Positions 1 through 1,249 of a stretch of 1,249 bases of DNA are shown one piece after another. The notes under the pieces were generated by a model. The model ran no database searches and was not told the origin of the DNA. It saw nothing but the letters and a program-made list of their open reading frames with translations. This stretch comes from Escherichia coli (lineage in GTDB: Bacteria > Pseudomonadota > Gammaproteobacteria > Enterobacterales > Enterobacteriaceae). A program made the translations under genes and the position numbers. The first letter of the stretch is position 1, and each line of letters opens with the position of its first letter. The DNA lies in NCBI RefSeq assembly GCF_003334255.1, contig NZ_QOWU01000169.1. One strand, written 5' to 3'.

Positions 1-277
1 ATACATGATCAAATACTCCTTACATAAATAAGGTGAACAAATGGAACTTAAAAAATTGATGGAACATATTTCTATTACACCCGATTACAGACAAGCCTGG
101 AAAGTGGTGCATAAATTGTCAGATATTCTACTGTTGACTATTTGTGCCGTTATTTCTGGTGCAGAAGGTTGGGAAGATATAGAGGATTTCGGGGAAACAC
201 ATCTCGATTTTTTGAAGCAATATGGTGATTTTGAAAATGGTATTCCTGTTCACGATACCATTGCCAGAGTTGTATCC
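1..277 (+). repeat. Direct repeat copy A: 5' UTR plus first 79 codons of an ISAs1-family/H-rpt transposase gene; the repeat may extend upstream of the window
   Basis: Manual alignment of 1-277 against 381-657 (offset 380) gives 13 mismatches in 277 bp (~95% identity). Homology ends abruptly after position 277/657. The first 40 bp (1-40 vs 381-420) are identical. Confidence 0.9.
30..36 (+). promoter_or_regulatory. Shine-Dalgarno sequence (AAGGTGA) for the 41-295 ORF
   Basis: AGGTG core at 31-35, a 5-nt spacer, then ATG at 41. The identical motif sits before the copy B start. Confidence 0.6.
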
Positions 278-295
278 CAGGGAAAGATCACGTAA
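41..295 (+). CDS. Truncated ISAs1-family (H-repeat-associated) transposase N-terminal fragment, 84 aa; probably an inactive remnant
   Basis: ORF from the track ([84 protein letters not shown]). Residues 1-79 are collinear with the N-terminus of copy B. After codon 79 the sequence leaves the repeat and gives 5 unrelated residues (QGKIT) and TAA at 293-295. From memory the N-terminus resembles E. coli H-repeat-associated proteins (YhhI/YdcC/YbfL type); the 84-aa size is reminiscent of ybfQ, but this is unverified. Confidence 0.65.
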
Positions 296-380
296 CGCTA
301 CTTTTTTGTACTAAATAATTCGCATTTTATGTTTAAAAATTGAGATATTCCTTATTACCTAAAGCTGTTTTTCATAGCTT

Positions 381-657
381 ATACATGATCAAATACTCCT
401 TACATAAATAAGGTGAACAAATGGAACTTAAAAAATTGATGGAACATATTTCTATTATTCCCGATTACAGATAAGCCTGGAAAGTAGAGCATAAATTGTC
501 AGGCATCCTACTATTGACTATTTTTGCCGTTATTTCTGGTGCAGAAAGTTGGGAAGATATAGAGGATTTCGGGGAAACACATCTCGATTTCTTGAAGCAA
601 TATGGTGATTTTGAAAATGGTATTCCTGTTCACGATACTATTGCCAGAGTTGTATCC
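381..657 (+). repeat. Direct repeat copy B (partner of 1-277)
   Basis: Same alignment as copy A. Mismatches relative to copy A lie at copy-A positions 78, 79, 92, 106, 108, 123, 124, 127, 133, 144, 167, 211 and 259. Confidence 0.9.
410..416 (+). promoter_or_regulatory. Shine-Dalgarno sequence (AAGGTGA) for the copy B transposase start
   Basis: AGGTG at 411-415, a 5-nt spacer, then ATG at 421. Identical to the copy A site. Confidence 0.6.
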
Positions 658-1249
658 TGTATCAGTCCTGCAAAATTTCACGAGTGCTTTATTAACTGGA
701 TGCGTGATTGCCATTCATCAAATGATAAAGACGTCATTGCAATTGATGGAAAAACGCTCCGGCACTCTTATGACAAGAGTCGCCGCAGGGGAGCGATTCA
801 TGTCATTAGTGCGTTCTCAACAATGCACAGTCTGGTCATCGGGCAGATCAAGACGGATAAGAAATCCAATGAGATCACAGCTATCCCTGAACTTCTTAAC
901 ATGCTGGATATTAAAGGAAAAATCATCACAACTGATGCGATGGGTTGCCAGAAAGATATTGCAGAGAAGATACAAAAACAGGGAGGTGATTATTTATTCG
1001 CTGTAAAAGGAAACCAGGGGCGGCTTAATAAAGCCTTTGAGGAAAAATTTCCGCTGAAAGAATTAAATAATCCAGAGCATGACAGTTACGCAATGAGTGA
1101 AAAGAGTCACGGCAGAGAAGAAATCCGTCTTCATATTGTTTGCGATGTCCCTGATGAACTTATTGATTTCACGTTTGAATGGAAAGGGCTGAAGAAATTA
1201 TGCGTGGCAGTCTCCTTTCGGTCCATAATAGCAGAACAAAAGAAAGAGC
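421..1249 (+). pseudogene. ISAs1-family (H-repeat-associated) DDE transposase gene, interrupted by an in-frame TAA at codon 18 (472-474); 3' end lies beyond the window
   Basis: Frame-1 translation from ATG 421 reads [17 protein letters not shown] then stop (TAA at 472-474; copy A has CAA there). The same frame then stays open from 475 to the window end (about 258 codons): ...[258 protein letters not shown]. From memory this matches E. coli H-rpt ORF-H proteins (YhhI/YdcC/YbfL-like). Candidate DDE aspartates fall at 745-747 (VIAIDGK) and 934-936 (ITTDAMG); the catalytic Glu would lie beyond the window. The ORF track missed this frame because it has no stop inside the window. Confidence 0.8.

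Follow-up and report, generated by a model that had tools for sequence, protein, structure and literature searches.

How did two nearly identical copies of the start of one transposase gene come to lie head-to-tail beside an Rhs element of Escherichia coli, and what has become of them since? The question is raised by a stretch of DNA of 1,249 nucleotides (hereafter, the window), in which an earlier note, made from the letters of the sequence, had described a 277-bp direct repeat carrying an untranslated region, a Shine-Dalgarno sequence and 79 codons of an H-rpt/ISAs1 transposase. The note had proposed that the two copies diverged as functional paralogs before they were juxtaposed, that they were not produced by a recent local duplication, and that a repeat of this size is a substrate for deletion or amplification. 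Here we place the window in its genome, describe the anatomy of the repeat, compare its copies with their paralogs and follow the locus through the complete genomes of the species.

Results

Identity of the locus and of the transposase

A megablast comparison with 5426 complete E. coli genomes matched the window at 100% identity to the chromosome of a K-12 J53 derivative (NZ_CP068706.1) and at 99.8% to MG1655 (736405-737653), the two mismatches with MG1655 falling at window positions 1188 and 1224, both outside the repeat. In the J53 derivative and in MG1655 the gene order is rhsC-ybfB-orphan RHS core fragment-ybfC-ybfQ-ybfL-ybfD-ybgA, the last gene being a conserved neighbour, and the window sits at the distal end of the RhsC element, 3' of rhsC, where it covers ybfQ and the start of ybfL. 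It is essentially certain that the window is the opening part of the H-rpt array of RhsC in E. coli, and between the window and the K-12 RhsC copies there is no structural difference, since sequence, gene order and pseudogene calls are the same. The three genes ybfQ, ybfL and ybfD are presumably the H-rptC1, H-rptC2 and H-rptC3 of the naming of Zhao et al. 1993 (J Bacteriol 175:2799). All three are called ISAs1-family transposase pseudogenes by PGAP ('missing C-terminus', 'internal stop' and 'missing C-terminus', respectively), while the annotation of MG1655 gives ybfQ as a CDS, 'inactive transposase YbfQ'. The array stands downstream of the rhs core gene and of orphan C-terminal tips, the placement of an Rhs-associated H-repeat, and the layout of the rhs locus was also found in 12 other strains; in some of these, the stretch displayed has no annotation for rhsC or for an orphan fragment. 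C-terminal tips of Rhs are known to be accompanied by H-repeats, and H-repeats have been entered in ISfinder (PMC3032704). The suggestion of the earlier note, that this is an Rhs locus with the clustered full and partial H-rpt copies that are a hallmark of such loci, is borne out by the order rhsC-ybfB-ybfC-ybfQ-ybfL-ybfD and agrees with those passages of PMC3032704 that cite Zhao et al. 1993. The same passages report that transposition of H-rpt has never been observed.

Membership of the ISAs1/H-rpt family, which the earlier note had assumed, was confirmed by protein profiles. With its stop read through, copy 2 scores 306 bits against NF033564, the curated NCBIfam model of ISAs1 transposases (E 2.9e-91; cutoff 70), and the fragment encoded by copy 1 scores 65 bits (E 5.7e-18, residues 29-79), just under the cutoff because only 51 of the 314 model positions remain. 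In the intact K-12 paralog YhhI, PF13808, the DDE_Tnp_1-associated N-terminal domain, is found at residues 8-94 (E 1.9e-33) and PF01609, the DDE_Tnp_1 catalytic domain, at residues 102-343 (E 1.7e-29). Copy 2 is collinear with YhhI over 378 codons; copy 1 keeps residues 1-79 only, so that it is cut inside the N-terminal domain (PF13808) and therefore has no catalytic domain. Related intact copies are named 'ISAs1-like element ISEc1 family transposase' by PGAP. The ends CAGGG...CCCTG are common to copy 2 and to the yhhI and ydcC elements, and copy 1 has the left repeat only. ISAs1 elements are about 1.2-1.5 kb long with short imperfect inverted repeats, and copy 2, at 1290 bp with 18-nt ends that pair at 16 of 18 positions, falls within this description. 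The likeness to the family thus extends to a DDE transposase that matches NF033564 and has PF13808 and PF01609, to a single open reading frame, and to about 1.29 kb of DNA bounded by imperfect terminal inverted repeats of 18 nt; the difference is that both copies of the window are dead and that a target duplication is not apparent. Inspection by eye of the aligned elements with their flanks showed no direct repeat around copy 2, yhhI or ydcC. Both flanks of copy 2 are other H-rpt copies, joined at their position 380 on the left and at about position 24 on the right, and any target duplication would therefore be lost.

Anatomy of the direct repeat

A repeat search and pairwise alignment reproduced the repeat with its untranslated region, Shine-Dalgarno sequence, 79 codons and about 95% identity. 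Positions 1-277 and 381-657 of the window are identical at 264 of 277 positions (95.3%), ungapped and with a start-to-start spacing of 380, and the probability of a 277-bp repeat arising by chance, given the base composition of the window, is about 1e-131. The 13 differences that had been counted lie at window positions 78, 79, 92, 106, 108, 123, 124, 127, 133, 144, 167, 211 and 259. Both copies are on the plus strand, and each has a leader of 40 nt with a Shine-Dalgarno sequence, then 79 codons in one reading frame, with the leader at 1-40 and codons 1-79 at 41-277 in copy 1 (H-rptC1, the ybfQ relic), and the leader at 381-420 and codons 1-79 at 421-657 in the second.

The 103-bp gap that seemed to separate the copies is not a gap: positions 278-380 are the inverted repeat and leader of copy 2. 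Homology runs 102 bp further upstream of window position 1, which makes the true unit 380 bp long, and two such units abut head-to-tail with zero spacer. The upstream extension ends at the motif CAGGGAAAGATCACG, which is the left inverted repeat of copy 1 itself (102 bp upstream of the window, L001 11898, plus strand), and the same motif starts at window position 278. The stump that is copy 1 thus comprises an inverted repeat, a 142-nt leader and 79 codons over 380 bp. At the junction (277..278), copy 1 stops with the last base of codon 79, and the very next base, the C of CAGGG, opens the left inverted repeat that belongs to copy 2. One consequence is the open reading frame of ybfQ (41..295, plus strand, 84 aa), in which the 79 N-terminal codons of the transposase are followed by QGKIT and a TAA read from the inverted repeat of copy 2.

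Copy 2 is a complete element of 1290 bp (window 278-1567). Its left terminal inverted repeat, CAGGGAAAGATCACGTAA, lies at 278..295 on the plus strand and pairs at 16 of 18 positions with the right arm, TTTCGTAATCTTTCCCTG, at L001 13550-13567 (window 1550-1567, outside the window); the left end and untranslated leader together (278..420, plus strand) have their homologue in window 1-40 and the 102 bp that precede it. The transposase pseudogene ybfL (H-rptC2; 421..1249, plus strand) is represented in the window by the first 276 of its 378 codons, and its frame is open to L001 13557 but for one stop. This single stop is an in-frame TAA at codon 18 (472..474, plus strand), where copy 1 and every other K-12 paralog have CAA, and all ten copy-2 alleles sampled have it, as do the two single-unit alleles described below. 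All five synonymous third-position changes that had been listed among the 13 differences are present, and the nonsense change CAA>TAA, which is also among the 13, had been overlooked. Judged from their reading frames, neither copy should be able to make transposase today, copy 1 being truncated at codon 79 and copy 2 carrying its nonsense codon at position 18. A third copy, ybfD, lies directly 3' of the right end of copy 2, lacks the first ~23 bases of the element and has an internal deletion of 313 bp. A scan of the window for promoters and terminators gave nothing above background save one hairpin, which is present in both copies of the repeat.

Relationships of the copies

The copies were compared in an alignment of the three RhsC copies with yhhI (RhsB), ydcC and yncI (RhsE) and the yafF fragment, all from MG1655. 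Over the 380-bp unit, the distance between copy 1 and copy 2 is 21/380 (5.5%), the smallest for either copy. When only the coding part is considered, copy 1 is 3.4% from yhhI and 5.5% from copy 2, and it is nearer to yhhI there because copy 2 has a long private branch. Raw pairwise distance was for this reason set aside as a misleading guide to relatedness, and site patterns were used instead. Seventeen derived sites are common to copies 1 and 2 against ybfD, yhhI and ydcC, eight of them in one 12-bp block beside the inverted repeat, and at no site is either copy paired with another paralog to the exclusion of its partner. The two copies are thus sisters within K-12, members of one H-rpt sub-lineage that we term here X-type. 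This paralog comparison is the first half of the refutation test that the earlier note had set itself, and it goes against the note: with 17 shared derived sites and 0 conflicting, the copies group as sisters. Being sisters, the copies are also compatible with a local origin, by a local hop or by duplication and divergence.

Private changes number 10-11 per copy and are differently placed. Those of copy 1 are mostly in the leader, with eight within 36 bp (window -57 to -22), and those of copy 2 are all coding, at 459-639. The eight leader changes of copy 1 resemble a conversion patch, not clock-like divergence. A search for an intact X-type element outside E. coli, with the exact 24-mer of the left end, found it absent from species-representative genomes bar two short MAG contigs that resemble E. 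coli contamination, which leaves the K-12 paralogs as the outgroups that polarise these changes.

Copy 2 itself is a mosaic. It carries 30 X-type or private sites in 278-721, two in 722-1403 and seven in 1404-1562 (Fisher p 8e-11), and it differs from yhhI at 8.2% of positions in the 380-bp unit compared with 2.2% in the remainder. This mosaic points to frequent gene conversion among H-rpt copies, by which any tree of them may be blurred.

Pattern of substitution

Between copy 1 and copy 2 there are seven synonymous and six non-synonymous steps, when the third-position steps of two doubly changed codons are counted, with an NG86 pN/pS of 0.23 (Fisher p 0.007). Polarised against the other K-12 paralogs, these changes resolve into seven synonymous and four non-synonymous (the nonsense change included) on the branch of copy 2, and one synonymous and two non-synonymous on that of copy 1; the stem shared by both copies has five synonymous and one non-synonymous. 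Transitions make up 10 of the 13 differences, a bias that lifts to ~30% the share of synonymous changes expected under neutrality. After this correction, 7 of the 11 changes on the copy-2 branch are synonymous against 3.5 expected (p 0.03), and in the whole X clade 13 of 20 are (p 0.002). The synonymous excess is real, only borderline once transition bias is allowed for, and it rests on 13-20 changes. The argument that the earlier note drew from synonymous changes is therefore right in its direction and a little stronger than the note had recognised, on a small number of events.

Age and spread of the tandem in E. coli

For the survey of the 5426 complete E. coli genomes we used probes of 50 and 40 nucleotides whose halves are too short to seed a match alone. 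A 120-bp probe of the junction had been rejected, given that half-matches from any single H-rpt were joined into one place and 5154 genomes appeared covered. The 50-mer across the junction of copy 1 and copy 2 was found in 2363 of the 5426 genomes, at 2370 places, nearly always once and always at ybfQ. The 50-mer that spans the left flank and the inverted repeat of copy 1 was found in 2741 genomes, and the 40-nt left end of X-type in 2821 (5293 places, median two per genome); 5' ends of H-rpt in general occupy about 26,000 places in these genomes. The X-type left end was found essentially only at the ybfQ-ybfL locus.

Ten carrier strains were then compared, picked at even steps down the match lists and otherwise arbitrarily. 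In all ten, 20 of the 21 differences between copy 1 and copy 2 are fixed together with the TAA, and only isolated later changes were seen. This fixation implies that the copies had diverged, and copy 2 had been inactivated, before the sampled carriers last shared an ancestor. The claim that the repeat is not a recent local duplication therefore stands, on a junction present in 2363 genomes and on differences (20 of 21) shared by 10 of 10 carriers.

Array forms and recombination between the copies

The array takes at least four forms among the strains inspected. K-12 and 675SK2 have ybfQ, ybfL and ybfD; seven strains have ybfQ and one hybrid, in which the 5' end of copy 2 with its TAA is joined to the deletion-bearing 3' part of ybfD type; two strains have ybfQ and a full-length copy, without ybfD; and E2865 and 2013C_3678 have a single unit and no ybfQ. 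In these last two strains, the leader of the single unit is that of copy 1, with its eight private variants all present, and the coding sequence is that of copy 2, again with every private variant and with the TAA. The longest stretch over which the two units are identical, ~98 bp, begins 21 bp before the window and reaches position 77, and a chimera of copy-1 leader and copy-2 coding sequence is what one crossover in this tract would produce. We also considered the single-unit allele as the ancestor of the tandem and rejected it on parsimony, given that at least three separate conversion tracts would be needed in the coding sequence of copy 1, sparing the interleaved X-type sites 109, 118, 121 and 190. 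The single-unit allele is read as a deletion product, and alleles of this kind show that the repeat recombines in nature.

The natural single-unit alleles of E2865 and 2013C_3678, as copy-1-leader/copy-2-coding chimeras, bear out the prediction that the direct repeat is a substrate for deletion. The comparison of 2741 with 2363 genomes suggests that roughly 14% of the carriers of the left flank are without the copy 1/copy 2 junction. Seven genomes carry the junction twice, which is how 2370 places arise in 2363 genomes, and in these the doubled junction may reflect amplification.

Discussion

Taken as a whole, the explanation that we find likely is that the window opens the H-rpt array of RhsC, that its repeat arose through an event at a transposase-recognised end, and that the repeat has later collapsed in some strains. 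For the origin of the repeat by itself, we put the odds in favour of such an event at roughly two to one. Either copy 2 would have inserted into an older relative, or an adjacent deletion mediated by its left end would have extended from there into a related copy next to it; an event at the element's end would account for the exact coincidence between the limit of copy 1 and the terminal base of copy 2. The insertion account needs a further deletion, because what follows copy 2 is a different copy, entered at about element position 24, and not the rest of copy 1. The sister status of the copies, the clustering of their private changes, the mosaic of copy 2, the want of a visible target duplication and the reported failure to observe H-rpt transposition also weigh against certainty. 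We favour a transposase-end origin because the junction falls on the terminal base, because RhsE offers a parallel, because of the synonymous bias and because the differences are old. At RhsE of K-12, the point at which yncI, an older element of the ISAs1 family, is truncated is exactly the point at which ydcC begins; there too, and again 3' of an rhs core, a complete H-rpt meets a truncated element with its left terminal base. The two loci differ in that yncI is a distant relative, with many mismatches to the H-rpt copies, and is cut near its 3' end; for that reason no long near-identical direct repeat is found there. The copies, ~5.5% diverged and mostly at synonymous sites, would have reached their present difference, and copy 2 would have acquired its stop, before the common ancestor of present carriers, and a crossover in the ~98-bp identical tract would then have removed one unit to give the single-unit alleles.

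The fact that the two units touch without a spacer and that each has the other as its nearest relative (17 derived sites in common, none in conflict) is also what would be expected if a 380-bp segment of one resident element had been duplicated in place, by slippage or unequal exchange, and had then decayed neutrally with patching by conversion from other H-rpt copies. The clustering of private changes, eight in 36 bp of the copy-1 leader together with the mosaic of copy 2, would suit such patching, and a single-unit allele that could in principle be the ancestor does exist. Duplication in place nevertheless has to let its endpoint coincide exactly with the terminal base of the element, at a locus whose junction of stump and complete element recurs at RhsE; it does not lead one to expect a synonymous bias between two dead copies; it must accommodate 20 of 21 differences already fixed in the ancestor of the sampled carriers, with only isolated changes since; and to derive the tandem from the single-unit allele it needs at least three conversion tracts that spare 109, 118, 121 and 190. 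We therefore hold duplication in place to be unlikely. Nor does the tandem fit a simple segmental duplication in its structure: the units are sisters, yet one endpoint is an element terminus, the 5.5% divergence has a synonymous bias, and the differences predate the ancestor of the carriers. Conversion could instead have made the similarity itself, if copy 2 had arrived in a yhhI-like state beside an old and diverged stump and its first 380 bp had been overwritten from that stump. The 8.2% distance of copy 2 from yhhI in the 380-bp unit against 2.2% in the rest, and the strongly uneven spread of its non-yhhI-like sites (Fisher p 8e-11), are in line with such overwriting. Against it, the diverged territory of copy 2 does not stop where homology with copy 1 stops, since the private sites 708, 717 and 721 lie beyond that point, and it reappears at 1404-1562; the 11 private coding changes of copy 2 are absent from copy 1 and so cannot derive from it; and a yhhI-like patch in the copy-2 leader (the equivalent of -57 to -22) would have to have escaped conversion. 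A similarity produced by conversion and bounded by the shared homology was rejected, as the diverged territory of copy 2 extends beyond the repeat, and we give the overwriting account in general a small chance, well below that of duplication in place.

As to what the stump might do, truncated-transposase regulators such as IS1 InsA, IS911 OrfA and the Tn5 inhibitor are encoded by design within active elements. YbfQ is likewise an N-terminal part of a transposase without the catalytic DDE domain; it differs from these regulators in being an accident of truncation, with a 5-aa tail from the neighbouring inverted repeat. By analogy, the 84-aa fragment could have kept a function, being expressed and acting in trans, maybe by binding H-rpt ends and repressing transposition. 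Of the PF13808 domain (residues 8-94) it retains the greater part (8-79), it is entered as a CDS in MG1655, and its reading frame is intact in 11 of 11 sampled alleles. These alleles have only one polymorphic coding site and are too similar for the conservation of the frame to carry weight. The branch of copy 1, with two non-synonymous changes against one synonymous, argues in the same direction, as do the pseudogene call of PGAP, the lack of a promoter-like site upstream of the frame within the window, and the ~14% of carriers that appear to have lost the stump by recombination. The Keio deletion strain of ybfQ has a reported phenotype in a worm-feeding screen (PMC12655312), and this phenotype says nothing on the molecular role of ybfQ. 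A retained function of YbfQ is therefore, to our judgement, very improbable, and it is just as far-fetched that the fragment has been co-opted as a putative trans-acting binder of H-rpt ends that silences the intact copies yhhI and ydcC. If it were true, such silencing might help to explain why H-rpt transposition has not been observed.

Returning to the transposase-end origin, the proposal that the copies diverged as functional paralogs before they were juxtaposed is plausible and unproven. The synonymous bias and the junction on the terminal base support it, and the sister status of the copies, the fact that both are now dead and the small number of changes weigh against it. What the repeat itself has demonstrably done is limited to one behaviour: it is 380 bp of 95% homologous direct repeat, and it collapses by recombination.

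The ybfQ and ybfL copies of RhsC are an already described feature, annotated as pseudogenes, in an array known for three decades. What the present analysis adds is the analysis of lineages and a view of the locus across the population: 2363 genomes with the junction, arrays of four types, and recombinants with a single unit. As pseudogenes of the best-studied bacterial genome, the copies have little value as a discovery. For those who annotate or assemble such genomes they call for caution, as strains have arrays of several lengths, owing to the 380-bp repeat and to the one of 1.27 kb behind it, and as conversion from paralog to paralog blurs the trees that are built from H-rpt elements. For the biology of these elements, the locus offers a clean natural case in which a complete insertion sequence set against the stump of a relative gives a few hundred base pairs of 95% identical direct repeat, and such a repeat persists in thousands of genomes yet collapses by recombination in a minority of them.

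Mosaic structure of the ybfL element

For the second H-rpt copy of the array, the complete ybfL element that runs from window 278 to position 13567 of L001, the K-12 locus that holds the window, we found a mosaic distribution of the sites that differ from the paralogs yhhI, ydcC and ybfD. These sites are dense in window 278-721 (30 sites), almost disappear in window 722-1403 (2 sites) and reappear in window 1404-1562 (7 sites), the window numbering being continued here into the K-12 locus. Since the differing sites are dense, then sparse, then dense again along the element, the alignment suggests that the middle of ybfL was converted by a yhhI-like copy.

The window differs from MG1655 only at positions 1188 and 1224, which lie 36 bp apart and read G and C in the window and A and A in MG1655. 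Both window bases are those found in the paralogs yhhI and ydcC, and the ybfL alleles of other strains carry all four combinations at the two positions (A/A, A/C, G/A and G/C). From the sequences compared, this is consistent with short tracts of gene conversion from the paralogs, or with recurrent mutation.

Within the 5' coding region of the transposase lies a hairpin that resembles a terminator and has a run of T after it (TCGGGGAAACACATCTCGA followed by TTTTTTG); the hairpin occurs twice in the window, at 189-217 in copy 1 (ybfQ) and at 569-597 in copy 2, because it is located within the repeat. Worms fed the Keio deletion strain of ybfQ (window 41-295) were reported in 2025 to have better UV-B tolerance (PMC12655312); a search of the text of that article returned no occurrence of the word 'transposase'.

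Variation of the array among strains

The interval between ybfC and ybgA is polymorphic in length, and in the other strains compared (L006-L017) it holds three, two or one H-rpt units. In strain ETEC1747 (L010 4016-4380) about 360 bp of AT-rich DNA, absent from K-12, separates the right end of the element from ybgA, and this stretch is found in strains that have a full-length second copy and lack ybfD. Its absence from K-12 indicates that the right flank of the K-12 array probably underwent a deletion. In strain 120899 the second copy, a 'hybrid', is not a simple recombinant between K-12 ybfL and ybfD; read by eye in the alignment, the middle of this copy carries yhhI/ydcC-like bases.

An IS5-family element in strain XH987 (L014 2815-3738) is inserted about 12 bp into the left end of copy 2, directly past the ybfQ junction, and it splits the match to the 50-mer probe centred on the border of the two copies, of which 37 of the 50 positions match. 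In strain RM7190, copy 2 has a left inverted repeat that begins with T (TAGGG; L017 3405) and not with C, a change of the terminal nucleotide of the element in this one strain.

The left-end sequence, the start of the H-rpt sub-lineage common to copies 1 and 2, was found in E. coli only, apart from two contigs of metagenome-assembled genomes (L018 1681-1704 and 2061-2084; L019 1283-1306). The label is Candidatus Nanosynbacter for contig JARKOR010000224.1 and Flavobacterium psychrophilum for contig QFQM01000662.1; one of the two has the 380-bp tandem, and both most likely represent E. coli contamination of the bins.

Related architectures in MG1655

A stump set against a complete element, as in ybfQ/ybfL, is also present in the RhsE element of MG1655, where the ISAs1-family pseudogene yncI, a more distant relative, adjoins ydcC (L003 ~6587-7675). 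The start of the complete ydcC H-rpt (CAGGG) is the exact point at which yncI is cut, near its 3' end. Furthermore, an isolated H-rpt 3' fragment, yafF (L004 9191-9379), lies in the b0215-b0221 interval of MG1655, which holds an rhs gene (rhsW1) in E. coli W and none in K-12 (Table 6, PMC3032704). The yafF fragment is probably all that remains of an Rhs element that has been lost.
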